64,000 bases of DNA, taken from contig OZ220477.1 of assembly GCA_965116015.1 (NCBI GenBank), positions 1,165,704-1,229,703 of the forward strand. Direction: 5' to 3'. Made by a program: the position numbers and the translations under genes. Below are positions 1 to 58,701 of the stretch, one piece after another (position 1 is the stretch's first letter; every line of letters starts with the position of its first letter). Below the pieces are notes generated by a model that ran no database searches, had not been told where the DNA came from, and saw only the letters and a program-made list of their open reading frames with translations. This DNA is from Dehalococcoidia bacterium (GTDB lineage: Bacteria > Chloroflexota > Dehalococcoidia > Lucifugimonadales > Australimonadaceae).

Positions 1-1
1 C

Positions 2-1390
2 GTCCCCGTCCAGACCGGCAAGCGCGACCGATTCACCGAACTCCAACCCGCCGCCGCCTTCCACAACCTCGCCGACCGCATCCGCGACGAACTCCGCGAC
101 CACAACGACCCCGGCGACGCCCGCGCTATGCTCGCCTACCTCTCCGGACGCCTCCCCCACACCCCTTCCGCCAACTCCGACCTCTTCGCCGACTGGCTCA
201 ACCAGCTCGACAACCTCCCACCCGAAGCAGCCGAATGGGACGAAACCGACGCCTTCGCCGCCCGCCTCCACGAAATCGCCGCCGCCAAACGCGAAGAACG
301 CTCCAACGCCCAGCGCAAAACCCTCTCCGACACCCTCCACAACATAACCGCAACCTTCGCCGACGACCTCCGATACCTCGAACTCGAACCCCCAGCCCCG
401 CCCCCCTCCATCCCGCCCTCAGCCCTCGACAACGCCCTCAGCATCCTCGAAGAACTCCGCAACGCCCTCAACTCCTTCCAGCAAATCCGACCCCAAGCCA
501 CAACCCTCAGCGAAGACCGCCAGCGCGCCCAAGACCGCGACCGCCTCCGCAGCGAAGCCGCCCGCCTCATCCGATCCTGGCAAGAAACAACCTCAACCCC
601 CCTCCCCGACCCCAACATCCCCGCCCCCGAAGACAGCAGCGCCCCCTCCCAGAACCACGACTCCACCGAACAACGCCAACTCGCATCCGAAAACAACGCC
701 CTCCGAGCCGAACGCGACCGCCTCGCCGCCGGCAAGAAAACCGCCGAAGACGAGCGCGGCCAACTCGAACGCGACCTCGACGACCGCCAGGCCTCCTACA
801 ACAAACTCAGCGCCGAGAAAGACGCCCAGAGCGAAGAGAACAGCCTCCTAAAAAGCAAGCTCCGCGAACTCCGCGAGAAACACGACTTGCTCCTCCAGAA
901 CAGCCTCCTGCCCCGGATCACGGGAGAAAACCCGGACATCGAAATCAAAAACGTCCCCGACGCCATCCACCACGCCCGCCAGATGTACGAACCCGACAAG
1001 CTCCTCATCGCCTTCAACGCAGCGTCAGACGAAGACACCCCCTACCAGCGCCCCCGCGAGGTGTTCGACGCCCTCATGTGGCTCGCCACCGACTACTACG
1101 ACCTGCGCGTCAACCCCCCAGGCGCCGAACCCGAATACGACCGCCGCCTCAAGGAAGCCTGCAACGGCTGGAGCTTCAGCGCCAAACAATCCGACACCGC
1201 AAAAAATATGTTCCCCGCCGAATACAAAACCACCGTCAACGGAAAAACCTACACCCTCGACCCCCACATCGGCGAAGGCTCCAAAGGCGACCCCCAGATA
1301 ATGATCCGCATCGGCTTCGCCTGGGACGACGACATCCACAAAGTCATCGTCGGCTACATCGGCCTCCACCAGCGCACCAAAGCAAGCTAA
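2..1390 (+). CDS. hypothetical coiled-coil protein; the 5' end is probably outside the window
   Basis: The frame of ORF 128..1390 stays open back to nt 2. It has a long E/R/L/Q-rich coiled-coil-like middle and an ordered-looking C-terminus (...HIGEGSKGDPQIMIRIGFAWDDDIHKVIVGYIGLHQ). Codon usage is C/A-ending like its neighbours. Confidence 0.55.
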   Translation, partial: VPVQTGKRDRFTELQPAAAFHNLADRIRDELRDHNDPGDARAMLAYLSGRLPHTPSANSDLFADWLNQLDNLPPEAAEWDETDAFAARLHEIAAAKREERSNAQRKTLSDTLHNITATFADDLRYLELEPPAPPPSIPPSALDNALSILEELRNALNSFQQIRPQATTLSEDRQRAQDRDRLRSEAARLIRSWQETTSTPLPDPNIPAPEDSSAPSQNHDSTEQRQLASENNALRAERDRLAAGKKTAEDERGQLERDLDDRQASYNKLSAEKDAQSEENSLLKSKLRELREKHDLLLQNSLLPRITGENPDIEIKNVPDAIHHARQMYEPDKLLIAFNAASDEDTPYQRPREVFDALMWLATDYYDLRVNPPGAEPEYDRRLKEACNGWSFSAKQSDTAKNMFPAEYKTTVNGKTYTLDPHIGEGSKGDPQIMIRIGFAWDDDIHKVIVGYIGLHQRTKAS

Positions 1391-1627
1391 CCAACTCCCA
1401 CGACCCCTGGCCCGAACCCCCGCGCAACATCCGCAGGGAACGGAGCGGCGACCCAACCCGCGCCCCGGCTCAGCCCGCCGCGCCTCACCCCTTGCAACGA
1501 CGCCTCCCCGCGCGGCGCGCCAGCGCAGCAACTGCCGACCCCATCGAGAACCTGCGCAAGCGCGCAACGCCCAGCGCCGAGCGCCATCTCCGCGCTACCC
1601 CGCCTGGAACGCCTGAAACCTAACCCC

Positions 1628-2809
1628 CTAGTCCGCCACCCGGAGCGCGCGCTGCGCAGCCGCCACCCCTGCCCCCGCCTGCGTCTCATAACCCTGACGC
1701 GCCACCGCATCCTCCAGAGCCCCCAGCAGCGTCAGCACATTCGCCCCCGTACTGTTATGACCCATCAACCCAACCCGCCACACCTTCCCCGCCAGCGGAC
1801 CCAAACCCCCGCTCACCTCAACCCCGTGCCCCTCCAGCATATGCCTGCGCGCCTCCCCCTCCTTCAACCCCTCAGGAGCAACCACCGCCATCAACGTCGG
1901 AACGCTCTCCTCCACATCCGCAACAACCCGCAAACCCATCGCCTCTACCCCAGCCCGAAACGCCGCCGCGCTCCGACGATGACGCTCCCACCGAGCCTCC
2001 AAACCCTCCTCAACGATCAACCGCAACGCCTCCCGCAGCGCATAGATCATCGATATCGGCGCCGTATGGTGATACGCCCGCCGATCCCAGTAACTCCCCA
2101 GCTCCGTCAGATCAAGATAAAAGCTCCGCACCGGCGTCGACCTCTTAAGCACAACATCCATCGCCCGAGAACTCATCGTCAGCGGAGCCAAACCCGGAGG
2201 AGCCCCCACGCACTTCTGCGTGCAGCTGTAGCACACATCCACACCCCACTCGTCCGTCCGGAACTCAACCCCCCCAAGCGACGTCACCGCATCCACAACC
2301 AGCAACGCCCCCGCCTCATGCGCAACCTCCGCCATCTCCCTAACAGGACTCCCAACCCCCGTCGACGTCTCAGCATGAACCATCCCCACAGCCTTCACCC
2401 CCCCCAAACCCGCAAGCGCCTCCCGAACACGCGCAGGCTCCGCCGGCCTCCCGAACTCATGCTCCACCGCCACAACATTCGCCCCGTTCCGCGACGCTAT
2501 CTCCCCCAAGCGCTCCCCGAAATACCCATTCACCGCCGCAACAAACGTATCCCCCGGCTCCAGAATATTCACCATCGCCGCTTCCATCCCCGCCGTCCCC
2601 GTCCCCGAAATCGGCAACGTAACCGCATTCTCCGTCTGGAACACATACCGCAGCATCTCCCGAACATCATCCATCGCCCCCAGAAAATGAGGATCCAGAT
2701 GCCCCAGCAGCGACGACCCCAGCGCGCGAAGCACCCGAGGGTCAACGTTCGCCGGCCCAGCCCCCATCAGCAACCGGCGCGGAGGAACAAACTCAGTACT
2801 CGTAGGCAT
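1628..2809 (-). CDS. class V aminotransferase (serine-pyruvate / alanine-glyoxylate aminotransferase-like)
   Basis: The translation shows typical AGXT/SPT-family blocks (LLMGAGPANVDPRVL, PISGTGTAGMEAA, CYSCTQKCVGAPPGLAP). The start is placed at the internal MPTSTEF (M16 of the tracked ORF). Codons end in G/T, i.e. the gene follows the local strand bias. Confidence 0.8.
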   Translation of the reverse strand: MPTSTEFVPPRRLLMGAGPANVDPRVLRALGSSLLGHLDPHFLGAMDDVREMLRYVFQTENAVTLPISGTGTAGMEAAMVNILEPGDTFVAAVNGYFGERLGEIASRNGANVVAVEHEFGRPAEPARVREALAGLGGVKAVGMVHAETSTGVGSPVREMAEVAHEAGALLVVDAVTSLGGVEFRTDEWGVDVCYSCTQKCVGAPPGLAPLTMSSRAMDVVLKRSTPVRSFYLDLTELGSYWDRRAYHHTAPISMIYALREALRLIVEEGLEARWERHRRSAAAFRAGVEAMGLRVVADVEESVPTLMAVVAPEGLKEGEARRHMLEGHGVEVSGGLGPLAGKVWRVGLMGHNSTGANVLTLLGALEDAVARQGYETQAGAGVAAAQRALRVAD

Positions 2810-3248
2810 AGTGCGGCTCTCGACTAAGTGAATTTGCGCCAGGCGGTCAACCAACGCCCCTCAGCGCACGCACAGAGAGGCCCCGCCCCGGCGCCGCCGC
2901 ATTATAGCAACGCAGAACCCTCGCCGCGCTCCCACGCTCCCCCAGACCGGGAACCCCTCGCCCTCCCCTGCCCACGCTAGAAGCAATCTTTTTACATAAC
3001 AACTTTTCGAACAAAAGAAAGTCCTTCTGCTCTCACGGCCAAGAGCAGCCAGCCCGCCCTCATCCCGATTTCACCCCTAAAACGCCTGTGTCTGCCTCCC
3101 TCAGGAAAACCCGCGCTAGGCCAAACCTTGCAGAATATTCCGAACAAATGCTATCTAAAATCATTGTTATATGCATATCCAGAGGGCTAGTGTTTACCCA
3201 TCACGCCCCAGCCGGGGCCGCCGACCTCGGAGAACCTCCCCCCAACCT

Positions 3249-4145
3249 ATGCAGCGCCCACCCAGCATCCAGCACGAGCCCGTCATGACACAGCAAGCCA
3301 TCAACGCCCTCAACGTCCGCGACGGCGGATCCTACGTCGACTGCACCCTCGGCGACGGCGGACACGCCGCCGCCATCCTCGACGCCTCTGCCCCCTCCGG
3401 CAGACTCCTCGCCCTCGACGCCGACCCCGAAGCCATCGCCTACTCCGCCAACCGCCTCCGACCCTACGGCGACAGAGTCATCCTCTCCAACGCCAACTTC
3501 AACTCCATCCACCACGAAACCCGCGCCCACAACTTCTCCCCATCCGACGGCTTCCTCTTCGACCTCGGCCTCTCCTCAAGACAACTCGACGCCGAAGAAC
3601 GCGGCTTCAGCTTCCAGCGCCCCGCACCCCTCGATATGCGCTTCACCCCAGAAGGCCCAACCGCAGCCGACCTCGTCAACAACCTCCCCGAAGAAGAACT
3701 CGCCAATATCATCCAACAATTCGGCGAAGAACCCCGCGCCCGACGCATCGCCCGCGCCATCGTCGCCGCGCGACCCCTCAACAACGCCCTCCGCCTCGCC
3801 CAAACCGTCGCCCGCGCATCAGGCTACCGCCGAGGACGCACCCACCCCGCCACCCGAACATTCCAGGCCCTCCGCATCGCCGTCAACAACGAAACCAACA
3901 ACCTCCGTCTCGGCCTCGCACAGGCCGCCCAAACCCTCGCACCCGGCGGACGCCTCGTAACCATCGCATACCACTCCCTCGAAGACAGGGAAATCAAACG
4001 CTTCATCGCCAGCGGACAACTCTCCCCCGTCAACAAACGCGTTATCAAACCCGACAAAACAGAAATCGCTCGCAATCGGCGAAGCCGCAGCGCCCGAATG
4101 CGCATCGCCGAAAAACCCGAGCCAGGAGGACGCGTATGCCGCTAA
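3249..4145 (+). CDS. rsmH: 16S rRNA (cytosine1402-N4)-methyltransferase RsmH
   Basis: H-E-P-V-M N-terminal motif, DCTLGDGGH SAM-binding motif, DLGLSS, and the HSLEDR box. The start is placed at MQRPPSIQHEPVM so the HxPV motif is included. Confidence 0.9.
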   Translation: MQRPPSIQHEPVMTQQAINALNVRDGGSYVDCTLGDGGHAAAILDASAPSGRLLALDADPEAIAYSANRLRPYGDRVILSNANFNSIHHETRAHNFSPSDGFLFDLGLSSRQLDAEERGFSFQRPAPLDMRFTPEGPTAADLVNNLPEEELANIIQQFGEEPRARRIARAIVAARPLNNALRLAQTVARASGYRRGRTHPATRTFQALRIAVNNETNNLRLGLAQAAQTLAPGGRLVTIAYHSLEDREIKRFIASGQLSPVNKRVIKPDKTEIARNRRSRSARMRIAEKPEPGGRVCR

Positions 4146-4282
4146 CCCTCCGTGCCCCTCCAAACCCTCCCCCCCAGGACACGGACAACCGCCCTTGGAA
4201 ACCCAGTGATCTCAGGAAACCCAGCGCCTCGCAGCGAGGCCAAGGCCGCAAAGCCAAAACCTAGTAGGGGGTTACGCACACC

Positions 4283-5359
4283 ATGATGGAATCGTACGAC
4301 AAAGAGCTCCAGAGCCACGCAGAAGACGGCATCGCCCAAGTCAAGGTCATCGGCGTCGGCGGCGGCGGATCCAACGCCGTCAACCGCATGTACAACAAGC
4401 GCGTCCCAGGCGTCGAATACCTCGCCATCAACACCGACGTCCAGCACCTCCTCCTCCTCGACGTCCCCGTCAAAGTCCGCATCGGCGACAAACTCACCCG
4501 CGGACTCGGCGTCGGCGGCGACCCCGAGATCGGCCGCGCCGCCGCCGAAGAATCCCGCGAGGAAATCTACCAGGCCGTCCGCAACGCCGACATGGTCTTC
4601 ATCGCCTGCGGAATGGGCGGCGGAACCGGCACCGGCGCAGCCCCCGTCGTCGCCGAAGTCGCCAGAGAAACCGGAGCCCTCACCATCGGCGTCGTCACCA
4701 AACCCTTCGGCTTCGAAGGCCGCAGACGCTCCCAGAACGCCGACGACGGCCTCGCTCGACTCCAGGAAAGCGTCGACACCCTCATCGTCATCCCCAACGA
4801 CCGCCTCGCCTCCACCTGCGACGACTCCGTAACCGCCGACAGCGCCTTCAAAATGGCCGACAACATCCTCCGCATGGGCGTCCAATCCATCGCCGAACTC
4901 GTCACCGTCGCCGGCGAAATCAACCTCGACTTCGCCGACGTCAAATCCATCATGAGCGGCACCGGCCCAGCATGGATGGCCATCGGATCCGCCGGCGGCG
5001 AAAACCGCGCCGTCGAAGCCGCCAAAGCCGCCATCAACAGCCCCATGCTCGACGTCAGCATCGCCGGCGCACGCGGCGTCCTCTTCAACATCACCGGCGA
5101 CAGCTCTCTCACCCTCAAGGAAGTCCAGATGGCCGCCGATGTCATCTCCGAAGCCGTCGACCCCGAAGCCAACATCATCTTCGGTATGGTCACCGACAAC
5201 TCAATGGAAAACCACATCCGCGTCACCATCATCGCCACCGGCCTCCCAGAATCCGACAACAGCGAAGACCTCGGACAGGACGAAATCTCCGCCTTCCTCC
5301 GCAAAGCCCTCAGCGACGGCGTAGAACTCCCCCCCTTCCTCAAGTCCGCCCGATTCTAG
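4283..5359 (+). CDS. ftsZ: cell division GTPase FtsZ
   Basis: The tubulin signature [28 protein letters not shown] and NTDVQ are present. The protein is 358 aa. Confidence 0.97.
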
Positions 5360-5381
5360 AGAGGCCCCCACTCGCCCAATC

Positions 5382-5404
5382 GTCTCCCGCATACCGCGGG
5401 AGAC
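5382..5404 (+). terminator. 9-bp stem hairpin just downstream of ftsZ (no U-tract)
   Basis: gtctcccgc / atacc / gcgggagac, starting 23 nt after the ftsZ stop. No T-run follows, so terminator function is uncertain. Confidence 0.3.
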
Positions 5405-5855
5405 TGCGGGGCCCCCTACATTCCGCTCTCCTCCCAACCCTGGGCGGGAGAGCGGAAAGGGGGCATAAGCCCGAACCCATTGCCCGCTACCCCTCCCCAC
5501 GCGCGGGCAACATCCAGGGGCAGACCTCCCAAAACCTGCCCTATCGATCCAAGGCCCGCTCCCCCGCCGCAAAAGGAGCCGGCCCGCCTCCAAAGGCCCC
5601 CGCGACTCAACTCCGGGGGCCTTCTCGCGCCCGCCGACCCAGCCACGCCTCCCGGCTCCAGATCCGGCGCCGCCTTACCCAAACCCCCGCGACCCTCCTG
5701 CATCGCGGCTCCGCATGCAGGTATCGCTGCGGCTGCTACCCGCCCGCACGACACCTACCTTACTCCAGGAGCCCTCCGCTCCCAGCTGGTCGCTGTTGCC
5801 CCGCCCGCGCGACACCTACCCTGTTCTGGCGTCCCAACCCCGCTCCCTACACAAC

Positions 5856-6086
5856 CCAACCCCCTCAACATCCCCCCACAGCTCCCCGAACATCCCCCAA
5901 CAAACCAGCTCCCTCCAGCAACAAACACGATCAGAAACCACCCTCCCGCCAACAACAGCGCCCCTCCCTGCCAGCCCAACAACCACACTCTCCCCCATCC
6001 GTCTGCGACCCCAACCCCCTCAACATCCCCCCACAGCTCCCCGAACATCCCCCAACAAACCCAGCTCCCTCCAGCAACAAAACACG
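5856..6086 (+). repeat. two copies of a ~75-bp direct repeat (5856-5930 and 6011-6086)
   Basis: ccaaccccctcaacatccccccacagctccccgaacatcccccaacaaac(c)agctccctccagcaacaaa(a)cacg occurs twice. The copies differ by two 1-nt indels, so no reading frame is conserved between them. Confidence 0.85.
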
Positions 6087-6435
6087 CCACTACCTACCCC
6101 AAACAGCCGCTCTCGACCACCGCGCCGGCCCGCGCCCCCTTGCCCATCCCAAACAGCCCATACCCCTCCCCAAACAACCCCCCATCCCACAACATCTAGC
6201 CGCCCTCGCCGCCGAAACAAGCCCATCTTGCGGAAACTCGACCCAACCCCTTGACTTCTCCCGTCAAAACCCCAACAATCCGCCATGCGAACCATACCCG
6301 CCCAAACCAGCGCCCCAACCTCACTCCCCACGCCCACCCTCGCCCCTTAACATCCGCTCATACCACCCCGAACAGCGCCGAACACGCCAGCTCCCCGACG
6401 CAACAAACACGGTCAGCAGGCAAGGTCGTGACACC

Positions 6436-7026
6436 ATGCGCTGCCCCAAATGCGGCGACCCAGACACCCGAGTAACCGACTCCCGCGACTCCGGCATGGA
6501 GATCCGACGACGACGCATGTGCTCCAAATGCTCCGTGCGCTTCACCACCTACGAGCGCGTCCAGCCCGACGCCCTCTCCGTCGTCAAACGCGACGGCCGG
6601 CGCGAAGACTTCACCCCGCACAAACTCCTCCACAGCATCCGCATCGCCTGCGTCAAACGACCCATCCCCAGCGGAGCCCTCGAAAAACTCGTCCACGACA
6701 TCGAAACCGACCTCCGCCAGCCCGCTAAATCCGAAATCCCCTCCTCCGCCATCGGCGAAGCCGCCCTCAACCGCCTCAGAACCCTCGACACCGTCGCCTA
6801 CATCCGCTACGCCAGCGTCTACCGCGACTTCGACTCCCTCGACGGCTTCATCGCCGAAGCCCAAGCCCTCCTCATCCCCAACCCCGAAACCGAAGACAAC
6901 TCAAGCCAGCTCGAACTCATCCCCAACGAGTTCACCCCACCCCCCAAACGCCAACCCCGACGCGGACGCCGCCCCGGAATCACCGAACCCATCCTCGCAA
7001 GAAACAACGCCCCCTCCCCAAACTAA
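6436..7026 (+). CDS. nrdR: transcriptional repressor NrdR with a C-terminal low-complexity extension
   Basis: MRCPKCGDPDTRVTDSRD...RRRRMCSKCSVRFTTYE zinc ribbon, followed by an ATP-cone (VVKRDGRREDF...AYIRYASVYRDF). The last ~40 aa are extra relative to typical NrdR length. Confidence 0.92.
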   Translation: MRCPKCGDPDTRVTDSRDSGMEIRRRRMCSKCSVRFTTYERVQPDALSVVKRDGRREDFTPHKLLHSIRIACVKRPIPSGALEKLVHDIETDLRQPAKSEIPSSAIGEAALNRLRTLDTVAYIRYASVYRDFDSLDGFIAEAQALLIPNPETEDNSSQLELIPNEFTPPPKRQPRRGRRPGITEPILARNNAPSPN

Positions 7027-7447
7027 CCCCCCAAACCCTAACAGCCTCTCCCGCGCGGAACGCTTCAGCGTCGCCATCTATAGGCTCCCAGAATCGCATT
7101 CCCCCCCTTCCGCGCGGAACGCGCCGCCGCCATCGACCACGTTCCCCGCCCCCGCGAGCGCCCTCCTCCCGCGCAAACGCATCATCGCCCGCGAACAGCG
7201 CCCCGAGCCCAGCCCGCCACGCGCGAACCCTGGCCCTCCGGCGAACAGCCGCCCGCCAACAGCTCCCGCGAACCCCAACTCCCCTTCACTCGCATTCAAG
7301 CCTCGACGCGTCGAGGCCCCCGGAGCGCTCAGCTCCCCTGAACGCTCCCCTCCCTACTCCTCAGGCCCCTCTCGATGCGCCACGGGAGCGGGCCAGCGGG
7401 CCCGACCCTAAGGATGGGTCGAGCCCGCCATCCCCCCTCCCTCCGAT

Positions 7448-7476
7448 TTGCCCCCGCCAACCCCCGCCCCTATACT
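7448..7476 (+). promoter_or_regulatory. sigma70-like promoter candidate for pdxA (TTGCCC-17 nt-TATACT)
   Basis: -35 at 7448-7453, a 17-nt spacer, and -10 at 7471-7476. The ATG at 7489 is only 12 nt past the -10 element, implying a leaderless or very short leader mRNA. Confidence 0.35.
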
Positions 7477-7488
7477 CCCCTCGCCCTC

Positions 7489-8508: not shown

Positions 8509-8597
8509 CCCCCAGCCCTCCCCCTGCCCAGCGCTATACTCGACGCTCGCCCAGCGTCGCCCCAACCGGCGCTCCCCCTGCGCGAGAGGTCCCCCCA

Positions 8598-9658: not shown

Positions 9659-9713
9659 ACCCCTCCATCCCACTCCCTATCCCCAACGGATAGCGCCCAT
9701 CACGCCGCCCAGA

Positions 9714-10727: not shown

Positions 10728-10768
10728 CCCCCCTCGCCCGCCTCCAAACACAAACAGGAGCAACCCTA

Positions 10769-12286: not shown

Positions 12287-12364
12287 CCAACCCGCAAACC
12301 CCTCGACGCCCGCCCAACGCCCAAACCTCCCCAGCGCCGCAACTAACTCCGCCCGGAAAACCCT

Positions 12365-14083: not shown

Positions 14084-14106
14084 CCCCGCGCCCAATCACC
14101 TCCCCA

Positions 14107-14255
14107 CATCGCTCCCCCGCAGGCGCGACGAACCTTTCCTTAGGCATGGGGATGAACCCGATACGGACACGGACACCGATACGGATACGGAAACCTTTCC
14201 TTAGGCATGGGGATGAACCTCCCATCCTCATCGCTCCCCGCAGGCGCGACGAACC
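14107..14255 (+). repeat. composite direct repeats X-Y-(GAYACS)5-Y-X
   Basis: X = catcgctcc(c)ccgcaggcgcgacgaacc at 14107-14134 and 14229-14255. Y = aacctttccttaggcatggggatgaacc at 14131-14158 and 14192-14219 (perfect, 28 bp). A hexamer tract (gatacg/gacacg) lies at 14159-14190. Confidence 0.9.
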
Positions 14256-14462
14256 CCTGGCCCTGTTCCAGCGCGTCGAACAAGCCCCGCCCGGTCCACG
14301 CCGACGCCCCCAACCTCACACGCCTCCTTATCGTCAAAACCACGACACTTACCCGTTGCGCAATAAGCGCTCTCGCCCCTACGCTATCACCTTGGGAAAC
14401 CGCCCCCCGAACGGGCAACCCGCCCCACCCCCGCCCCCGCAAACCCAAACCCAAGGAGGAGA

Positions 14463-14489
14463 ACGTTACGAAATGTTACAGAATGTTAC
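14463..14489 (+). promoter_or_regulatory. three 10-bp-phased (A)TGTTAC motifs overlapping the HTH gene start codon (candidate operator)
   Basis: aCGTTACgaaATGTTACagaATGTTACg. The same triple motif occurs in inverted orientation at 43184-43210. Confidence 0.5.
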
Positions 14490-14874
14490 GCCCGAACAAA
14501 CCAACTCCCTCTCCCCGCGACAAACCGCCGCGCTCCCCCACATCGCCTCAGAACCCACCCTCGCCGACGGCGCCCGCGCCGCCCGCATCGCCAGAATCAC
14601 CCTCAACCGATGGATGCGCGAACCCGCATTCCGAGCCGAACTCGAACGCATCCGCCAGAACATCGCCGACCTCGCCTTCACCGAGCTCCAAGCCGCTACC
14701 CTCAAAGCCGTCTTCCGCGTCGTCGAACTCCTCAACCACCCAGACCCCAACCTCAGACTCAAAGCCGCCAAAACCATCCTCTCAACCGCCATCGCCTCCC
14801 GCAGCGACAAAGACCTCTCCCTACGCCTCGACACCATCGACAACGCCCTCTCCCTCCTCAAAAACCAGCAATGA
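14473..14874 (+). CDS. small HTH protein (phage small-terminase-like / phBC6A51-type HTH)
   Basis: 133 aa. LSPRQTAALPHIASEPTLADGARAARIARITLNRWMREPAFRAEL fits the pattern of terS-type HTH domains. AAGGAGG lies 11-13 nt upstream. Confidence 0.55.
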   Translation: MLQNVTPEQTNSLSPRQTAALPHIASEPTLADGARAARIARITLNRWMREPAFRAELERIRQNIADLAFTELQAATLKAVFRVVELLNHPDPNLRLKAAKTILSTAIASRSDKDLSLRLDTIDNALSLLKNQQ

Positions 14875-15245
14875 AAAACTCCCTCCGCCGCATCGAACGC
14901 TACCTCGCCTGCCAGATCGCCCAAGTCTCCCTGCAGCCCATCGCCGCCGACTACATCGAACGCTGGAAACTCAACCGCCAGCGGAAACAACCCCTCCCTC
15001 CCCCCGAAGAACTCATCGACTCCGCAGCCGCCGCCCGAATCCCCACCCTCGCCCCCGGACCCCTCATCGACTACCTCTGCAAATGCGCCGACAACAACGA
15101 CACCCCCGAACCTAACCGCATCATCGAAGCCATCGTCCACGGATACGCCCGCGACTTCCTCAAAGCCGACAGAACCTGCCGCTGCCCCGCGCGCAAACCC
15201 CTCTACGCCTCACACCGCATCCGACCCATCAACCCCCTCCCCTAA
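14871..15245 (+). CDS. hypothetical protein (124 aa), translationally coupled to the HTH gene
   Basis: ATGA start/stop overlap with the upstream CDS. No recognisable motif. Confidence 0.4.
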   Translation: MKNSLRRIERYLACQIAQVSLQPIAADYIERWKLNRQRKQPLPPPEELIDSAAAARIPTLAPGPLIDYLCKCADNNDTPEPNRIIEAIVHGYARDFLKADRTCRCPARKPLYASHRIRPINPLP

Positions 15246-15336
15246 CCTCAGACGCCCGCCCATCCCGCCTCCCCATCCAACCCCCAAGCCCCCCGTTTGA
15301 CCTCCAACCCCCCAACCCCTACAATCGCCACTCCAC

Positions 15337-15413
15337 GGTGGGCGTAGTCGAGGGGTTAAGACGCCAGGTTGTGGCCCTGGAGATCGAGGGTTCAATTCCC
15401 TCCGCTCACCCCA
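15337..15413 (+). tRNA. tRNA-His (GTG) with encoded G-1 and CCA
   Basis: Hand-folded cloverleaf. Acceptor GTGGGCG/CGCTCAC, anticodon stem CCAGG/CCTGG, loop TTGTGGC, T-arm GAGGG-TTCAATT-CCCTC. An extra 5' G is opposite discriminator C. Confidence 0.9.
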
Positions 15414-15440
15414 CCCCCGCGACCCCAGGAGGACAAACCC

Positions 15441-16184
15441 ATGGGCAAACTCGACAACAAGGTCGCCATCATCGTCGGCGGCGGACGCAACATCGGACGC
15501 GCCACCGCCAAACTCTTCGCCTCCGAAGGCGCCCGCATCGCCATCTTCGACCTCGACCAATCCCGCGCAGCCTCCGTAACCGAAGAGATCGCCGAACAAG
15601 GCGGCCAGGCAACCTACACAACCGGCGCCGTCCAGAACCCCAACGACATCCAGAATATGATCGCCTCCGTCGTCAACCACTACGGCCAGATCGACATCCT
15701 CGTCAACTGCGCCGCCATCTCCGACCGCTCCCCTATGCTCGAACTCGACAACGACGAATACCTCCGAGTCATCGACGTAACCATGAACGGAACCTACTAC
15801 GCCTGCAAATACGTCGCCCAGCAAATGATCGACCAGGGACACGGCGGAACCATCGTCAACTTCTCCTCAGGCTCCGCATTCCAGGGCAACACCCGGCGCG
15901 TCGCCTACGATATGGCCAAAGGCGCCATCGTAACCCTCACTATGGATATGGCCGCACAGCTCGCACAGCACGGCATCCGAACCAACTGCATCGCCCCAGG
16001 AATCACCGGATCCCAAGTCGGCGGCCAGATACCCTTCGAAGACCGCGCAACCACCAACCTAGTCGGCGGACGACCCGGATACCCCGAAGAACAAGCCAGC
16101 GTCGCCCTCTTCCTCGCCAGCGACGACTCCCGACACCTCTACGGACAAACCCTCCGCAACGACGGCGGCGGCTCCATCCTCTAA
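15441..16184 (+). CDS. SDR family oxidoreductase
   Basis: VAIIVGGGRNIGRA (TGxxxGxG-like), NCAA, and the catalytic Y..AK (AYDMAKGA). AGGAGGA RBS. Confidence 0.88.
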   Translation: MGKLDNKVAIIVGGGRNIGRATAKLFASEGARIAIFDLDQSRAASVTEEIAEQGGQATYTTGAVQNPNDIQNMIASVVNHYGQIDILVNCAAISDRSPMLELDNDEYLRVIDVTMNGTYYACKYVAQQMIDQGHGGTIVNFSSGSAFQGNTRRVAYDMAKGAIVTLTMDMAAQLAQHGIRTNCIAPGITGSQVGGQIPFEDRATTNLVGGRPGYPEEQASVALFLASDDSRHLYGQTLRNDGGGSIL

Positions 16185-16252
16185 CCCCACGACTAACCCC
16201 CACAGCCCGCGAACCAGCCCCGCCCCCACAACCCGCAAGCCCAGGAGACCCA

Positions 16253-16576
16253 ATGACCAGCGACTACCAGAAAACCGCCCACAGGAGCGACGTCAAACCC
16301 AACGAACTCCTCCTCGTCCAGGTCGGCGAACGCCAGATCCTCCTCACCGAACTCGATGGCCAAGTCATCGCCTTCGACAATATGTGCACCCACGAAGAAT
16401 GCGACCTCCTCTACGGCGCCATCGACGACATCAACGAGATCGAATGCGACTGCCACGGCGCCCGCTTCAACGTCCTCACCGGTGAAGTCGCAAGCCCCCC
16501 AGCCGAAATCCCCCTCCCCATCTACAACATCTCCGTCAACGACTCCTACGTCTACGTCGGCCCCCGCAAAAACTAA
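16253..16576 (+). CDS. Rieske [2Fe-2S] ferredoxin
   Basis: The C-T-H..C and C-D-C-H-G-A-R-F cluster-binding motifs are present. 107 aa. AGGAGA RBS. Confidence 0.85.
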   Translation: MTSDYQKTAHRSDVKPNELLLVQVGERQILLTELDGQVIAFDNMCTHEECDLLYGAIDDINEIECDCHGARFNVLTGEVASPPAEIPLPIYNISVNDSYVYVGPRKN

Positions 16577-16595
16577 CCCCCCCCCCCCCCCCCCC
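16577..16595 (+). repeat. homopolymer C19
   Basis: Nineteen consecutive C residues immediately after the Rieske gene's TAA stop. Confidence 0.95.
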
Positions 16596-16707
16596 GAAAG
16601 CGGAACCTCGCGCGAACCTCCAACCCGCTCCTCTCCCCCAAACAACTCCCCAGGAAACCCCGCATAGAACCAGCTCCCCTAGCGCAACCGCACAATCCCC
16701 AGCGCGC

Positions 16708-16784
16708 CCGCCCGTAGCTCAGTGGAACAGAGCATCGGTCTTCGGAACCGAGGGTCGTGGGTTCGAATCCCGCCGGGCGGGCCA
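16708..16784 (+). tRNA. tRNA-Arg (TCG), CCA encoded
   Basis: Hand fold. Acceptor CCGCCCG/CGGGCGG, D-arm GCTC-AGTGGAACA-GAGC, anticodon stem TCGGT/ACCGA, loop CTTCGGA, T-arm GTGGG-TTCGAAT-CCCGC. Confidence 0.85.
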
Positions 16785-16845
16785 CCCCCAACCTCCCCGC
16801 GCTAACATACCCCCAGCAATCCTCGCACAACCAAGGAGGCTCCCC

Positions 16846-17892
16846 ATGCCGGTAATCGACGCAGACACCCACGTCGACGAGACCGAAGCCACTTGGCAGC
16901 CCCTCCAAGGAGCCAGCGCCAAACACTCCCCAGCCACAATGACCCCAACCCCCCAAGAGATCCAGCGCCTCGCCCTCAGCCCCTCCCGCAGCCGCTTCTG
17001 GCTCGTCGAAGGTCGCCTCCAGGTCCGAGCCGTCCGCGACGACATCCACCACCCCCCACGACCGCGACGCGAACTCGAAGACATCCAGGGCCGCCTCGAC
17101 GATATGGACCGCATGGGCGTCGACATCCAGGTCCTCTTCCCCACCTTCTTCATCCGCTACATCTCCCTCAACCCCGAACCCGAAGCCGCCCTCGCACGCT
17201 CCTACAACCAATGGATCGCCGAACGCTGCGCCCAAACCAACGGACGCCTCCAATGGGCCGCCGTCATCCCCTGGCTAAACCCCAACGACGCCGTCCAAGA
17301 GATCCAATGGGCCAAAGACCACGGCGCCTGCGCCATCTTCAAACGCGGATTCGACCTCGGCAAACCCGTCAGCCACCCGCACTTCCTCCCCGCCTACGAA
17401 ACCGCAAACGACCTCAGCCTCCCACTCTGCATCCACACCGGACACCCCGGCAGCGAATGGGACCGCGGATTCCCCGTTATGGCCTCCTTCCTCTCCATCC
17501 TCAACGCCAACCTCCCCCGCCGATTCCCCAACATCCGCTTCGGCTTCATCGAAGCCGGAGCATCCTGGATCCCCTACGCCCTCTCCCAACTCGCAATGCG
17601 CGAACGCGCAGCACGCATCCACGAAGAAAACCCCACCGTCCCCCCATCCGCCTCCCTCTTCCGCGACAACCGCCTCTACATCTCCATCGACCCCGTCGAC
17701 GACATCCAATACCTCCTCTCCCTCGGCGCCGAAGACAACCTCATCATCGGCACCGACTACAGCCACACCGACCCCTCCGCAAACCTCAACGCCCTCGGCG
17801 AAGTCCGCCGCTGGGCCCAAGAGGGCAGAATCTCCAGCGACAACGCCGCCAAGATCCTCGAACGCAACCCCGCCGCCCTCTACGGACTCTAA
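16846..17892 (+). CDS. amidohydrolase-2 (ACMSD/PF04909-like) family protein
   Basis: N-terminal IDADTHV metal-binding motif, an internal IHTGHP, and the C-terminal GTDYSH..D motif. Confidence 0.8.
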   Translation: MPVIDADTHVDETEATWQPLQGASAKHSPATMTPTPQEIQRLALSPSRSRFWLVEGRLQVRAVRDDIHHPPRPRRELEDIQGRLDDMDRMGVDIQVLFPTFFIRYISLNPEPEAALARSYNQWIAERCAQTNGRLQWAAVIPWLNPNDAVQEIQWAKDHGACAIFKRGFDLGKPVSHPHFLPAYETANDLSLPLCIHTGHPGSEWDRGFPVMASFLSILNANLPRRFPNIRFGFIEAGASWIPYALSQLAMRERAARIHEENPTVPPSASLFRDNRLYISIDPVDDIQYLLSLGAEDNLIIGTDYSHTDPSANLNALGEVRRWAQEGRISSDNAAKILERNPAALYGL

Positions 17893-17993
17893 ACCCTCCC
17901 CGCCCCGCAGCGCCCGCCACGACAGCCCCATCCCGACAAACCCCCAACCCAACCCCTGCCCCCGCCTCGCCCAAACAACGAAACCACGAAACA

Positions 17994-20300
17994 ATGAAGA
18001 CAACCAACCCCCCCTACGCCGGACAGAGCATCCTCCGCATCGAAGACGACCGACTCCTCCGCGGACGCGGCAGCTTCACCGCCGACATCCGCCTCCCCGG
18101 CGCTGCCGCCCTCGCCATCGTCCGAAGCCCCTACTCCCACGCCGCCATCAACCGCATCGACCCCGCAACAGCCCTAGCTATGCCCGGCGTCCTCTCCGTC
18201 ATCACCGGAAACGACCTCCACGGCATAGGCCTCCTCGACAGCGTCGGACGCCCCGGAATGGAAATCAAACAAGGCGGCGCGCACCCCGTCCTCGCCCTCG
18301 GCAGAGCCCTCTACGCAGGCCAGCCCCTCGCCGCCGTCGCCGCCGAAACCCCCGCCCAGGCCGCCGACGCCGCCGCCCAGATCGACGTCGACTACCAACC
18401 GCTCGAACCCGTCAACAACCTCGAACGCGCCGCCAACGACGGCTACCCGCCCCTCCACCCCGTAATGCGGAACAACATCTGCGCCCACCAGCGCGCCGGC
18501 GGAGGCGACATCGACGCAGCCTTCGCCGCAGCCGACAGAATCGTCTCCGGCAGATTCGTCGTCCCACGCCTCGCCCCAATGGCTATGGAAGCCCGCGCCT
18601 GCATCGCCTCCTACGACCACCCCTCCGGCGACCTCACATTCTGGTCATCCAACCAGTCCGCCCACGACACCCAGCTCCACATCGAAGAAGTCGTAAGCAT
18701 CCCCGGACGCGTCCGCGTCTTCGCCCCAGACGTCGGCGGAGGATTCGGCCACAAGCACCACCTCTACCCCGAAGAAGTCGCCGCCATCATCCTCGCAATC
18801 CGCCTCAACCGCCCCGTCAAATGGGTCGAAGACCGCAGCGACAACATCCACTCCTCACACGCCCGCGGCCTCGAAGCCTCCCTCCAAGCAGCCCTCCGCT
18901 CCGACGGCAGAATCCTCGGCCTCCGCGCACGCTTCTACTCCGATATGGGCGCCTACTGGATCAGCGGCGCATTCACCTCCCCCGACAACGCCGCCAAACG
19001 CATCACCGGCCCCTACGACATCCCCGCCTACCACGGCGAACAACTCTGCCTCATCACCAACCGTCCCCCCATGACCGCCTACCGCGGTGCCGGACAGCCC
19101 GAAGGCACCTTCTGCATCGAGCGCCTCCTCGACATCGCCGCCCACGAACTCAACCTCGACCCCATCGAAATCCGCCGCCGAAACCTCATACCCCCCTCAA
19201 GCTTCCCCTACTCCACCGTCGCCGGCATCCCCTACGTCGACGGCGACTACGAACCCGTCCTCGACCACGCCCTCCAAGCCGCTAACTACCCCGCCCTCAT
19301 CGCCCGCCGCGACCTCGAACGATCCCAAGGCCGCCTCGTCGGCCTCGGCCTCGCCCTCTCAACAAAAGGCTCCGGCGGAACCGGAGGCGACGCCGCCCGC
19401 TCCAGCGCCGCCAGAATCACCGTCGCCCCCGACGGCGGCGTCGCCCTCGCCACCGACATCTCCCCCCACGGACAAGGCAACGCCACAACATTCGCCCAGA
19501 TCGCCGCCGACGCCCTCGGAGCCCCCTTCGACGACATCGCCGTCCAGTGGGGCGACAGCGACCTCATCGAACCCTTCGGCCCCGGCGCCGGAACCTACGC
19601 CAGCCGAGGCCTCGTCATCGGCGGCCACGCCGTGCGCCAGGCCGCCCAGCAAACCCGCGACGCCCTCCTCGACGCCGCCGCGCACGCCCTCGAAACCAAC
19701 CGCGACGACCTCGAGATTGCCCAGGGCGTCGTCCGCTCCCGCTCCGGCCCCTCCCGCCAGATGCCCATCGGACAGCTCGCCGCGATCGCCGGAACCCCCG
19801 CCGAAGGATTCTCACACTACGCAACCTACACCCTACCACCCGGCAGCTTCGCCTTCGCCGTCCACATCGCCTGCGTCGAGATCGACCGCGACACCGGCGC
19901 TGCCGCCATCCGCGACTTCATCGCCGTCCACGACGTAGGCAACCTCGTCAACCCAATGATCGTCGAAGGCCAGATCCACGGCGGCGTGGTTCAGGGTTTC
20001 GGCGAAGCTATGTGCGAAGCCATCTCCTACGCCCCCGACGGACGCCCCAACCAATGGTCCCTTATGGACTACCCCCTCCCCCTCGCCGAAGACCTCCCCA
20101 GCCTCATCGTCGAAACCCGCGCCACCCAGGCCCGCAACGGCGACCTCGGCGTGCGCGGCATCGGCGAAATGCCCTCCGTCGCAAGCCCCGCCGCACTCGC
20201 CAACGCCGTCCACGACGCCCTCCGCCACATCCGAGCCCCCGCCGTCGACATCCCCCTCACCCAAGAGCGCCTCTGGCAAGCCATCCAGCAAGCAGGCTAA
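17994..20300 (+). CDS. xanthine dehydrogenase/aldehyde oxidase family molybdopterin-binding subunit (CoxL-like)
   Basis: SILRIEDDRLLRGRG N-terminus, AYRGAGQPEG, GGGFG, and the GIGE...P motif near the C-terminus. 768 aa. Confidence 0.88.
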   Translation: MKTTNPPYAGQSILRIEDDRLLRGRGSFTADIRLPGAAALAIVRSPYSHAAINRIDPATALAMPGVLSVITGNDLHGIGLLDSVGRPGMEIKQGGAHPVLALGRALYAGQPLAAVAAETPAQAADAAAQIDVDYQPLEPVNNLERAANDGYPPLHPVMRNNICAHQRAGGGDIDAAFAAADRIVSGRFVVPRLAPMAMEARACIASYDHPSGDLTFWSSNQSAHDTQLHIEEVVSIPGRVRVFAPDVGGGFGHKHHLYPEEVAAIILAIRLNRPVKWVEDRSDNIHSSHARGLEASLQAALRSDGRILGLRARFYSDMGAYWISGAFTSPDNAAKRITGPYDIPAYHGEQLCLITNRPPMTAYRGAGQPEGTFCIERLLDIAAHELNLDPIEIRRRNLIPPSSFPYSTVAGIPYVDGDYEPVLDHALQAANYPALIARRDLERSQGRLVGLGLALSTKGSGGTGGDAARSSAARITVAPDGGVALATDISPHGQGNATTFAQIAADALGAPFDDIAVQWGDSDLIEPFGPGAGTYASRGLVIGGHAVRQAAQQTRDALLDAAAHALETNRDDLEIAQGVVRSRSGPSRQMPIGQLAAIAGTPAEGFSHYATYTLPPGSFAFAVHIACVEIDRDTGAAAIRDFIAVHDVGNLVNPMIVEGQIHGGVVQGFGEAMCEAISYAPDGRPNQWSLMDYPLPLAEDLPSLIVETRATQARNGDLGVRGIGEMPSVASPAALANAVHDALRHIRAPAVDIPLTQERLWQAIQQAG

Positions 20301-20363
20301 GACCCCCGTCCCCGCCTGCCCTCCAGGGTTGCAAAATCTCCCCCATAGGCACACCATAAACAT

Positions 20364-21272
20364 ATGCACGCTGGAGAATTCGAACTCAACGACCCCCTCC
20401 CGAGCCTGCGCGAACCCCACCTCATCGCCACGCTCACCCCATGGATCGACGCCGGCAGCGTCGGCTCCCTCAGCGTCGAGCGCCTCGAACGCTTTATGAA
20501 CGCCGAACAGCTCGGCGGCCTCTCCACACCCGGCAAATTCTTCGACTTCACCCGCTACCGCCCTATGGTCTTCTACGAAGAAGGCCAGCGAAAGATGCGC
20601 GTCCCCAACGCCGACCTCCGCTGGGCCGCCGGCGACGGCGACCACGACTTCATCTTCTTCCATATGCTCGAACCCCACTCCAACGCCGAGGAATACATCG
20701 ACGCCGTAACCGAAGTCATCGAAACCCTCGATGTCAGACGCTTCTGCCGCATAGGCGCTATGTACGACGCCGTACCCCACACACGCCCCCTCCTCGTGAT
20801 GGGAACCCTCAACGGCGAACCCCTCGACAACGTCGAGGGCGTCGAAGGCAACCGCCGCCGCCCCTACCAGGGCCCCACCTCCATCATGAATATGGTCGGC
20901 GACCGCCTCCACGCCAAAGGCGTCGACAATATGATGCTGATGTGCCGCCTACCCCACTACGTCGAACTCGAAGCCGATTTCGCAGGTCGCACCAAAATGC
21001 TCCAGGTCCTCAGCTCCATCTACGGCTTCCCCCCTGAGTACGCAGCCAGCAGGCGCGACACCCACCAATACGCCCGCGTCACCGCCGAAATGCAGCGCAA
21101 CCCAAAGGTCCGCTCCCTCGTCGAGCGCCTCGAAACCGACTACGACGCCCGCGCCGCCCGCCGCCGACGCAACACCCGCCCAGCCACCGACGACCTCCCA
21201 CCGCTGCCCCCCTCCGTCGAAGAATTCCTCGGCAAACTCACCGGCCCCGCCGAAGAAGAAAAAGAAGAATAG
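20364..21272 (+). CDS. PAC2 (proteasome assembly chaperone-like) family protein
   Basis: Length and blocks (PHLIATLTPWIDAGSVG, FIFFHMLEPH, YQGPTSI) resemble PAC2/PF09754 proteins. Acidic C-terminal tail. Confidence 0.55.
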   Translation: MHAGEFELNDPLPSLREPHLIATLTPWIDAGSVGSLSVERLERFMNAEQLGGLSTPGKFFDFTRYRPMVFYEEGQRKMRVPNADLRWAAGDGDHDFIFFHMLEPHSNAEEYIDAVTEVIETLDVRRFCRIGAMYDAVPHTRPLLVMGTLNGEPLDNVEGVEGNRRRPYQGPTSIMNMVGDRLHAKGVDNMMLMCRLPHYVELEADFAGRTKMLQVLSSIYGFPPEYAASRRDTHQYARVTAEMQRNPKVRSLVERLETDYDARAARRRRNTRPATDDLPPLPPSVEEFLGKLTGPAEEEKEE

Positions 21273-21606
21273 CGCCCCAAGGCCGCCGCCCCGGAAAGCT
21301 GCGAATCGCCTTTCGTATCGCAGCCAGCCCGGCGACGGCGGCAACATTTACGCCCGTCGGCCAGGGCGGCGCGAGTTCCAGATTGTCCCTGCCGAAGACA
21401 ACCAGCCGCCCACGGCTTGAGCGACCGCACCCCTGAGTCGCCCAAGCCCCCTGCGGAACCCTCGAACGCCGCCCGACAGCAAACATCGCGAGGAACGGAG
21501 GCTCCCCATACGACTCGCCCGCCCTCTATCAGCCCCGATTGCGCCCATCGTCCTCATCGTCCTCATCCTCCTCGCCGTCCTCAGCGTCGGCGCCGCAGCC
21601 CCCGTC

Positions 21607-23683: not shown

Positions 23684-23736
23684 TAAAACAGGCAAGGCCA
23701 ACCACCCGCGACCAGCAAACACGCAAGGAGCACACA

Positions 23737-24699: not shown

Positions 24700-24747
24700 C
24701 CGTCAGAAGCAAACTCCCCAACGCCCTCCAACCAACGGAGGAGAACA

Positions 24748-25470: not shown

Positions 25471-25511
25471 CCTAGGCGCAGACCTCCCCCCATTCCCAGA
25501 CCGGCCCTCCT

Positions 25512-58700: not shown

Positions 58701-58701
58701 G

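Follow-up and report, generated by a model that had tools for sequence, protein, structure and literature searches.

Can one strand of a bacterial chromosome be stripped of G and T almost wherever the genetic code leaves a choice, and if so, what strips it? This question was raised by a 64-kb stretch of DNA (the window, that is, the whole stretch analysed) within a 2.39-Mb contig of an uncultured member of the Dehalococcoidia, whose genome measures ~2.4 Mb with a GC content of 65%. A first-pass annotation, made from the sequence alone, had claimed an extreme asymmetry of the plus strand over positions 1-21300, citing hand counts of C59 G26 A25 T10 for nt 1-120 and C32 G10 A11 T7 for nt 10021-10080. 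Our recount gave identical numbers, and the asymmetry proved to be real: the plus strand of 1-21300 contains A4795 C9551 G4270 T2684, which corresponds to a GC skew of -0.382, an AT skew of +0.282, 67.4% A+C and 64.9% GC. The GC skew of individual 1-kb windows ranged from -0.21 to -0.50, whereas a magnitude below 0.1 had been named in advance as the refuting threshold. Two descriptions from the same annotation needed correction. To call the plus-strand frames nearly stop-free is an overstatement, as they hold 49, 30 and 69 stops per 7100 codons, compared to 155-199 in the minus frames, and the most abundant residues of the pseudo-peptides encoded there, described as rich in P, T, N, H and Q, are P, R, S, A and T.

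Results

The saturated block covers positions 1..21272 of the plus strand, where G and T are nearly absent from synonymous sites (6.5% of 5575 synonymous-choice sites); on the left it runs off the window edge and is open. Its 17 genes encode the C-terminal part of a 590-aa protein, an aminotransferase (minus strand), RsmH, FtsZ, NrdR, PdxA, ProC, YggT, DegV, PepA, an AAA15 ATPase, a hypothetical protein, an SDR, a Rieske protein, an amidohydrolase, the large subunit of a Mo-hydroxylase and a PAC2 protein. In every one of these 17 genes the GC skew at four-fold sites lay between -0.86 and -1.00. For the block overall it was ~-0.95, with an AT skew of ~+0.8, and G+T made up only ~4% of the four-fold sites. 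The 16 plus-strand genes, claimed to use C/A-ending codons, indeed did so: their four-fold sites held C2535 A396 G79 T55, their Asp/Asn/His/Tyr/Phe/Cys codons ended in C 992 times versus 30 times in T, and their Gln/Glu/Lys codons ended in A 469 times versus 151 times in G. The class V aminotransferase gene (1628..2809, minus strand), which is the sole minus-strand gene of the block, displayed the mirror image and preferred G/T-ending codons, again as the first-pass annotation had it. On its own coding strand the four-fold sites held G177 T59 C6 A2, so that C-ending codons were not favoured at these sites, while Gln/Glu/Lys codons ended in G 42 times versus once in A, and T-ending codons outnumbered C-ending ones by 36 to 17. 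Read on the plus strand, the same gene showed a four-fold GC skew of -0.93.

Since the minus-strand gene shows this mirror image, the bias belongs to the DNA strand and not to translation selection, which upholds the original interpretation. Genes of both orientations and the intergenic DNA of the block (GC skew -0.44; AT skew +0.31) agreed in sign. Likewise, all minus-strand genes in the skewed blocks carried the plus-strand sign without any reversal with gene orientation, including those of the intermediate block described below (LLM, -0.42; MFS, -0.44). The bias was strongest at codon position 3, followed by intergenic DNA and then positions 1 and 2, an order that was the same in relatives; A+C reached 95% at the synonymous sites of the block versus 70% in its intergenic DNA. 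The tRNA genes were unaffected. Both tRNA-His (15338..15413, plus strand) and tRNA-Arg (16708-16784) lie inside the saturated block and are unskewed (GC skew +0.11 and +0.08, respectively), showing that selection overrides the bias.

When the block was compared to the syntenic outgroup locus L001, G was retained at 78%, 76% and 19% and T at 74%, 92% and 5% of codon positions 1, 2 and 3, respectively. The main changes from L001 to the window on the plus strand were G>C (507), G>A (441), C>A (260) and T>C (230), while the opposite changes were far fewer (C>G, 41; A>G, 101; C>T, 54). At four-fold sites with G in both the sister and the outgroup, the window carried C in 76% and A in 20% of the cases. 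These sites are saturated and a spectrum could not be resolved from them; direct G>C change was instead inferred from single-step amino-acid replacements. The proteins drifted accordingly: plus-strand genes showed V>I, G>A, G>N, D>N, A>T/P and E>Q replacements, whereas amino-acid usage in the minus-strand gene trended the opposite way. Relative to its closest listed homologues, the aminotransferase showed Q>E, P>A, T>A and K>R, replacements that take C>G and A>G changes in its coding sequence. Within the clade, G (replaced by A and by C) and T (replaced by C) are thus being lost steadily from the ftsZ-bearing strand, and on the opposite strand the same changes read as C>T, C>G and A>G.

Differences between window and sister were polarised ~6-11 to 1 in the saturated tracts. 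In the thiG-Ku region they were symmetric at a similar total divergence, which points to a biased equilibrium rather than a burst in rate. A lineage-specific mutational burst, suggested by the 6-11 to 1 polarity, was therefore rejected, as the unskewed genes have diverged equally. With regard to enzyme-driven clustered hypermutation (deaminase toxins, APOBEC-like enzymes, DGR or RIP), the same absence of excess divergence in the saturated tracts argues against a burst, while sequence context is unreadable at saturation.

Gene content and gene order were conserved in relatives, whose bias was weaker but equal in sign, and the saturated block was syntenic with the outgroup loci L001 and L165. 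The strand effect amounted to ~0.28 in the outgroup L165, ~0.45 in the sister L161, ~0.58 in L170 and 0.94 in the window; in L167, the two plus-strand genes gave -0.73 and -0.80. These relatives stem from independent projects, short-read assemblies included. The strength of the bias thus rises over related lineages and peaks in the window, where a new A>T component is added. The magnitude had been described as far beyond ordinary replication skew, and indeed the level of the window was not reached by any of 160 related loci retrieved from public genome and metagenome data: the largest skew was 0.28 for a 3-kb window among 80 metagenome loci, and 0.26 locus-wide among 80 ftsZ loci. The FtsZ protein of the window is 81-87% identical to those of its relatives. 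Exact-protein look-ups with FtsZ, AAA15, P0001, P0241 and ProC yielded no second copy of this lineage, the best relative in JGI metagenomes was just 67% identical, and the saturated state is represented by one assembly only. Our literature searches brought up no report of a comparable skew in Dehalococcoidia.

Segmentation placed a sharp edge of the block at 21269/21609, across which G+T at four-fold sites rose in a step (Fisher p = 4e-14); the end coordinate of 21300 had thus been well chosen. The edge DNA (21273..22400, plus strand) separates the PAC2 and MFS genes by ~1.1 kb, compared to ~120-130 bp in the outgroup and sister, and includes an ORF (21607-22395) with no Pfam match. The edge at ~21.27 kb falls inside a gene pair that is ancestrally syntenic. 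Bulk skew falls from 18 to 41 kb, but the four-fold sites stay level up to a step at 21.3 kb and are broken up by mosaic tracts. A less-converted patch (817..1063, plus strand) with 21% G/T at synonymous-choice sites lies within the saturated block. Past the edge, two saturated tracts lie on the plus strand of the MFS gene, one at 22522..23119 (4.2% G/T, n=190; directional changes from sister to window 65 vs 7) and a smaller one at 23227..23446 (4.4% G/T, n=68; 30 vs 3). The intermediate block (23449..33158, plus strand) has 28% G/T at synonymous-choice sites and a four-fold GC skew of -0.23 to -0.66 in both gene orientations, with an AT skew that is mostly positive still.

Further to the right, 40059..51229 is without strand effect (51% G/T) and contains an MFS gene, a low-GC MTase-HNH islet, thiG, thiE-S, EamA and three tRNA genes; the orthologous region of the sister genome is likewise unskewed, and the thiG-Ku region shows no strand effect in either genome. 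It is followed by a weakly reversed region (51232..58927; 55-68% G/T; four-fold GC skew +0.22 to +0.37), whose HlyD-ABC-MacB genes are missing from the matching position in the sister, while a ligase-domain gene labelled LigD is common to both. Along the 64 kb the sign passes from negative to zero, to positive and to weakly negative, with the strand bias dropping from 0.94 to ~0 within 20 kb. The locus has also been rearranged, as judged from an inversion in the sister with a breakpoint adjoining thiG and from three segments found in the window only. Import of the unsaturated tracts left no donor signal, their identities to outgroup and sister being equal to those of the saturated tracts. Recent import does not account for the unskewed thiG-Ku region either, which is vertically inherited, has diverged from the sister as much as the saturated block and is unskewed in both genomes.

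The window contains no DnaA-box cluster, only scattered one-mismatch matches (8 vs 3.1 expected), and no dif-like site was found in it with a pattern taken from other phyla. The zone of sign change lacks an origin or terminus signal, and the segment at 43.4-44.1 kb is an AT-rich islet beside the MTase-HNH gene. The record coordinates of complete relatives could not be used to place the origin. The position and strand of ftsZ are inconsistent among the OZ records, which suggests that these are not rotated to dnaA. The C+A-rich strand is the gene-rich strand, carrying 16 of the 17 block genes and all 5 tRNA genes of the window. Under the usual rule of a G+T-rich leading strand, replication would meet ftsZ and the genes around it head-on, a conditional remark of the first-pass annotation that is logically correct. 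Just as plausible is the alternative that the gene-rich strand is leading and C-rich. The usual polarity would place ~90% of the genes in 1-32 kb, and both tRNA genes there, head-on, which is atypical.

Discussion

The strand asymmetry described here is real, evolved and near saturation. Three features go beyond what the first-pass annotation had described: the bias is graded across the clade, its boundary is a step accompanied by mosaic tracts, and its spectrum includes G to C transversions. We favour, at roughly even odds, an extreme, lineage-intensified and strand-asymmetric substitution bias that is most likely linked to replication and has become mosaic via recombination and rearrangement. 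In such a scenario, the strand opposite to ftsZ would be single-stranded and damaged more often, through deamination of cytosine and adenine and bypass of lesions, and the usual setting for such exposure would be asymmetric DNA replication. A general pressure may hold third-position GC near 85%; this would make C the sink at four-fold sites and A the sink at purine-only sites, while overall GC stays at 65%. Because purifying selection preserves working proteins and tRNAs, synonymous sites show a near-complete bias and intergenic DNA a partial one, while amino-acid usage has visibly drifted. The 21.3-kb edge, the small tracts and the weaker or reversed blocks to the right could stem from insertions, inversions and homologous exchange with close relatives of weaker skew, and the thiG-Ku region may experience mixed or no fork polarity.

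Several observations speak against this explanation. Within the 64 kb visible, the bias falls from 0.94 to ~0 over 20 kb; the vertically inherited thiG-Ku region is unskewed in both genomes; ~90% of the genes in 1-32 kb would be placed head-on; intergenic DNA is far less skewed than synonymous sites; and the lineage is found in one assembly only. Moreover, G>C transversions are no classical product of deamination. The recombination part is challenged by the position of the 21.3-kb edge inside an ancestral gene pair and by tract identities that did not identify a donor.

Conceivably, though we regard this as rather unlikely, a local and position-specific process acts on this chromosomal domain instead of ordinary fork asymmetry. 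Starting from a fixed point left of the window, the domain's minus strand would repeatedly become single-stranded, through recurrent end resection or break-induced repair, strand-displacement style replication or a DNA-transfer initiation site, and damage would pile up tract by tract in the fashion of mitochondrial DNA. The conserved confinement of the bias (strong in the ftsZ block, ~0 in thiG-Ku, in both window and sister), the tract-like structure with sharp edges and small saturated patches, and the joint GC and AT skews, as in mitochondrial strand asymmetry, would fit this idea, and resection of a DNA end on the left would bare the minus strand and match the sign. However, neither the window nor the adjoining 10 kb on the left in the sister contains a visible starting element, the profile stays level and then steps down without smooth decay, and the similar weak bias of the outgroup spans ~60 kb, more like a replichore-wide feature. 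Improbable, in our judgement, is selection for a G-poor, C-rich plus strand regardless of gene direction, for instance because it would prevent G-quadruplexes or R-loops or match the needs of a protein that reads the strand. While GC content is constant with G replaced mostly by C, and the state far exceeds the mutational asymmetries known from bacteria, the analysis revealed no motif or structure, and synonymous sites are more affected than intergenic DNA. Furthermore, the drift of proteins along with the bias resembles pressure rather than benefit, and the gradation among relatives fits a rate parameter.

Differential damage or repair of template and coding strands in a long, heavily transcribed co-directional array would account for the co-directionality of 16 of the 17 block genes and for the stronger skew of coding compared to intergenic DNA. 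Such transcription-coupled asymmetry is nonetheless very improbable and is already largely refuted by the minus-strand genes: the aminotransferase gene keeps the plus-strand skew rather than reversing it, and those of the intermediate block agree in sign. In addition, classical transcription-associated deamination enriches T, not C, on the coding strand. The single assembly and the sharp internal edge might raise the suspicion of a sequencing, base-calling or assembly artefact, or of a chimera of two strains, but this is hardly credible. Codon position determines how strongly a site has changed, the intact ORFs code for conserved proteins such as FtsZ, tRNAs are spared, weaker versions of the bias occur in relatives from other projects and technologies, and the difference of >10% between saturated and unsaturated DNA would be too much for a strain-collapse chimera.

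If the assembly holds, this strand asymmetry is one of the most extreme on record for a cellular chromosome, and the genes affected include essential ones such as ftsZ, rsmH, nrdR and pepA. It illustrates the reach of mutation bias on codon usage, with one tRNA pool serving opposite codon sets depending on the strand, and extends to protein composition. The series of relatives (~0.28, 0.45, 0.58 and 0.94) offers a natural system for finding the change in repair or replication that sets the strength of the asymmetry, and because gene orientation and skew polarity conflict, the rule of a G-rich leading strand becomes directly testable in a new phylum. On a practical note, gene callers would be expected to report long spurious ORFs on the stop-poor strand, and skew-based origin prediction and composition-based binning may misbehave on such genomes. 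It is also imaginable, albeit quite unlikely, that this bacterium, and its clade to a smaller extent, handles the two strands of at least the ftsZ domain in a fundamentally asymmetric way, either by a strand-displacement or long-delayed lagging-strand mode in which one strand would stay single-stranded for long, as has been proposed for mitochondria, or by an inverted polarity with a C/A-rich leading and gene-rich strand. To our knowledge, either form would be a mode of replication or repair undescribed for free-living bacteria.

Compared to known systems, the imbalance of the block is as strong as in animal mitochondria and much above that of normal bacterial chromosomes. In the usual bacterial pattern, most genes lie on the leading strand, which is rich in G+T. 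Like this replication skew, the bias of the block follows the strand whatever the gene orientation, peaks at synonymous sites and also occurs in intergenic DNA, and the C>T and A>G changes on one strand fit classical single-strand deamination. Unlike it, the block is far more strongly skewed at four-fold sites, its gene-rich strand is C/A-rich, G>C transversions are prominent, and the bias of the window steps within 20-40 kb without a recognisable origin or terminus. In vertebrate mtDNA, the L strand is A+C-rich with G near-absent from four-fold sites, which is attributed to deamination of a displaced strand. The block shares the A+C-rich strand, the near loss of G at four-fold sites and the combination of GC and AT skews. 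However, the window belongs to a high-GC cellular chromosome, C rather than A dominates its four-fold sites, and a smooth gradient from a known origin is not demonstrated in it. A bacterial precedent for orientation-independent strand disparity is provided by the CPR order UBA1400 (Ch65, Ca. Collierbacteria, Ca. Beckwithbacteria), in which the G/C disparity extends over the whole chromosome, with 29.8% C versus 15.0% G on one strand (skew ~-0.33) whatever the gene orientation (PMC7143001). Its cause is unexplained, the authors suggesting unidirectional replication, and it is uniform along the whole chromosome with no AT skew (PMC7143001). The window resembles UBA1400 in the strong excess of C over G on one strand irrespective of gene orientation, but differs from it in an AT skew of +0.28 (four-fold ~+0.8), in its mosaic and regionally bounded character and in its setting within a Chloroflexota genome of 65% GC.

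Strand polarisation of synonymous sites

The window is part of a 2,388,059-bp contig from an uncultured bacterium of the Dehalococcoidia (Chloroflexota). Over positions 1-21300 the plus strand holds A4795 C9551 G4270 T2684, giving a GC skew of -0.382, an AT skew of +0.282, an A+C share of 67.4% and a GC content of 64.9%; the hand counts reported for parts of this region in the first-pass annotation were exact on recount. GC content remains at ~65% all along the window. Bulk GC skew stays near -0.4 as far as ~18 kb, then declines to ~0 at 41 kb, is weakly positive at 52-58 kb and becomes weakly negative again at 59-64 kb.

Genes were mapped by translating ORFs, searching Pfam and predicting tRNAs. 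At four-fold sites, the plus-strand GC skew of each of the 17 genes in 1-21272 (the saturated block) lay between -0.86 and -1.00, with AT skews of +0.33 to +1.0. When the 16 plus-strand genes were pooled, these sites amounted to C2535 A396 G79 T55, while two-fold pyrimidine codons ended in C in 992 cases vs 30 in T, and two-fold purine codons in A in 469 cases vs 151 in G. Read on its own coding strand, the sole minus-strand gene of the block, encoding an aminotransferase (1628-2809), showed G177 T59 C6 A2 at four-fold sites, a purine-ending preference of G42 vs A1, and 36 T-ending vs 17 C-ending codons. Since this codon usage mirrors that of the plus-strand genes, the bias belongs to the DNA strand, as had been proposed from the mirror-image codon choice of the same gene. 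Intergenic DNA of the block is skewed with like sign and more mildly (GC skew -0.44; A+C 70%), and both tRNA genes are without skew.

The plus-strand frames had been described as nearly stop-free. Indeed, stops are 3-5 times rarer there than in the minus frames, but they are not absent. Because stops are scarce, very long spurious ORFs of 684-1185 aa, rich in P/R/S/T, occur on the plus strand at 4972-7026, 9998-12286, 11317-14874 and 16893-20300, overlapping real genes in other plus frames. Errors are likely in automatic gene calls for this region, and an antisense ORF call over the MoCo gene on the related contig L167 may be an example. No terminator-like hairpin with a T-run was found on the plus strand in 1-20000, although 16 of the 17 saturated-block genes lie on that strand; all 20 pattern matches in this interval were on the minus strand, and their count was below that of shuffles. 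T-run terminators seem barely encodable on the plus strand of this interval.

Two local features were noted within the block. The ftsZ-nrdR spacer, which measures 1.16 kb vs ~600 bp in the sister genome, contains three copies (5854-5934, 6009-6089 and 6336-6416) of an 81-nt C/A-rich direct repeat that are 75-77% identical. The ATPase gene at 12365-14083, a full-length one of the AAA15 (OLD-like) type, occupies the place of a PIN-PhdYeFM toxin-antitoxin pair in the sister and outgroup; it is fully saturated (four-fold skew -0.89) and is thus a long-term resident.

Gradation of the bias among relatives

Four relatives were compared with the window: an outgroup, the closed 3.70-Mb MAG OZ244741.1 (loci L001 and L165; FtsZ 81% identical); a sister genome, the 2.38-Mb circular contig ctg12652_31x_c from ERZ25068043 (loci L161 and L168; aminotransferase 87% and ThiG 89% identical); L167, a contig assembled from short reads in a different project (PAC2 87% identical); and L170, a scaffold, likewise of short reads, from another project (aminotransferase 86% identical). 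Synteny with the outgroup, at 73-80% nucleotide identity, covers aminotransferase to pepA, SDR-Rieske and MoCo-PAC2-MFS. By using genes in both orientations, we separated the strand effect from codon preference. Its sign was identical throughout, and its size was ~0.28 in the outgroup, ~0.45 in the sister, ~0.58 in L170 and ~0.94 in the window. For L167, where plus-strand genes alone were available, two genes gave -0.73 and -0.80. Among the window and these relatives, a strong AT component was seen in the window only. Among loci taken from public genomes and metagenomes, 80 for ftsZ and 80 for the aminotransferase, no skew approached that of the window.

Block structure along the window

Block boundaries were determined by site-level segmentation of the G/T share at synonymous-choice sites. 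The saturated segment (1-21269; G/T ~6%) encloses a less-converted patch of 250 bp at 817-1063. It is followed by 21609-22519 at 26%, by two segments within the MFS gene at 4% each (22522-23119 and 23227-23446), and by 23449-33158 at 28%. Further along, the share is 46% in 33161-35731, 32% in 35734-40053, 51% in 40059-51229, 55-68% in 51232-58927 and 35-47% in 58930-63996. At 21.3 kb the edge lies between the genes for PAC2 and MFS, neighbours in the outgroup and sister, and coincides with ~1.1 kb of window-only DNA; other window-only segments are 24.7-46.0 kb and 51.8-57.7 kb. In the sister, as in the window, the strand effect is ~0 in the thiG-Ku region, vs ~0.45 in the sister's ftsZ cluster, and the regional contrast is therefore common to both species. 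No origin or terminus signature was detected within the 64-kb window.

Direction of substitution and protein drift

At codon positions 1, 2 and 3, respectively, the window kept 78%, 76% and 19% of the plus-strand G of the outgroup, and 74%, 92% and 5% of its plus-strand T. The plus-strand matrix from outgroup to window was strongly directional, with forward counts of 507 for G>C, 441 for G>A, 260 for C>A and 230 for T>C, and reverse counts of 41 for C>G, 101 for A>G and 54 for C>T. Four-fold sites with G in both sister and outgroup carried C in 76% of cases in the window and A in 20%. The window ORFs are intact and code for conserved proteins, which are somewhat more diverged overall (amino-acid identity to the outgroup 71.8% vs 77.3% for the sister). 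Window-specific replacements run with the bias: those in plus-strand genes were V>I (27), G>A (17), A>S (15), L>I (12), G>N (12) and D>N (9). Pooled, the residues P, T, H, Q, N and K went up from 20% to 25%, and the residues G, V, W, F, C, L and M went down from 34% to 28%. The minus-strand aminotransferase drifted in the opposite direction (Q>E, P>A, T>A, K>R). Several replacements require a single-step G>C change in plus-strand terms, so G:C>C:G transversions belong to the process.

Changes from G/T in the sister to A/C in the window outnumbered the reverse by 140:13, 296:49, 93:17, 65:7 and 30:3 in saturated tracts. In the thiG-Ku region, window-sister differences were balanced in both directions and total divergence was similar, which argues against the saturated block being a faster-evolving hypermutated tract. 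Its substitutions are almost all one-way. At this level of window-sister divergence, there has probably been enough time for long-resident blocks to near their own equilibria, and the lack of bias in the thiG-Ku region is thus unlikely to stem from recent arrival.

Rearrangements and additional loci

Comparison of sister locus L168 (830-851 kb) with window 16.8-24.7 kb and 46-59.5 kb revealed an inversion in the sister of the amidohydrolase-MoCo-PAC2-MFS-epimerase block, with a breakpoint adjoining thiG, so that the block lies directly next to that gene; the other arrangement is common to window and outgroup. In the inverted block the coding-strand C excess is weakened but kept (-0.14 to -0.37).

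The minus strand at 57726-59523 encodes Ku together with an ATP-dependent DNA ligase that has ligase domains only (labelled LigD), two proteins that act as a pair in non-homologous end-joining; both genes are conserved at this place in the sister. Two ORFs, at 31319-32839 (plus) and 44088-45986 (minus), each encode a fusion of an N6/N4 DNA methylase domain with an HNH endonuclease domain; an AT-rich islet (43.4-44.1 kb; GC ~52%) adjoins the minus-strand ORF and hints at recent acquisition of the element. At 28980-30123, after an overlapping upstream ORF, lies the sequence for the C-terminal portion of a GRDB-like protein (glycine/sarcosine/betaine reductase selenoprotein B family); the gene may contain an in-frame TGA (selenocysteine) or be disrupted. 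A truncated AAA15+DUF3226 ORF occupies a lower-GC patch at 27196-27648.

Origin of the bias and relation to known systems

The explanation with the best support is a substitution bias that differs between the strands, of a type usually associated with replication, which has intensified in the clade and is extreme in the window lineage. It would act under constant GC pressure, while selection preserves function; insertions, inversions and recombination with close relatives of lower skew would explain the edges and patches. Plus-strand equilibrium ratios were 33-46 for C/T and 3-5 for A/G. Under our own simple model, with GC pressure working against one ratio and strengthening the other, these values would correspond to a roughly ten-fold transition asymmetry, a model-based figure rather than a measurement. 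Ordinary bacterial chromosomes display modest asymmetries, far below ten-fold, and mitochondria are a suggested comparison. As the gene-rich strand is C/A-rich, ~90% of genes in 1-32 kb would be head-on to replication, or the usual polarity would be inverted.

A local process that leaves one strand exposed as single-stranded DNA is a serious rival to this replication-type bias. Coupling of the asymmetry to transcription is contradicted by the minus-strand genes, and an artefact both by the dependence of the changes on codon position and by the gradation of the bias across independent assemblies, although the saturated lineage itself was seen only once.

Among the closest known cases, ordinary replication skew is much weaker than the bias in the window, and mitochondrial strand asymmetry is also comparable. 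Another is the CPR UBA1400 genomes, in which a G/C disparity extends uniformly over the whole chromosome (C 29.8% vs G 15.0%) without AT skew (PMC7143001), whereas GC and AT skew are combined in the window. Literature searches found no report of such skew in Dehalococcoidia. What is new here is the near-complete strand polarisation of synonymous sites, in both GC and AT skew and in core genes, on a free-living-type bacterial chromosome, together with its gradation across a clade and its sharp mosaic structure.
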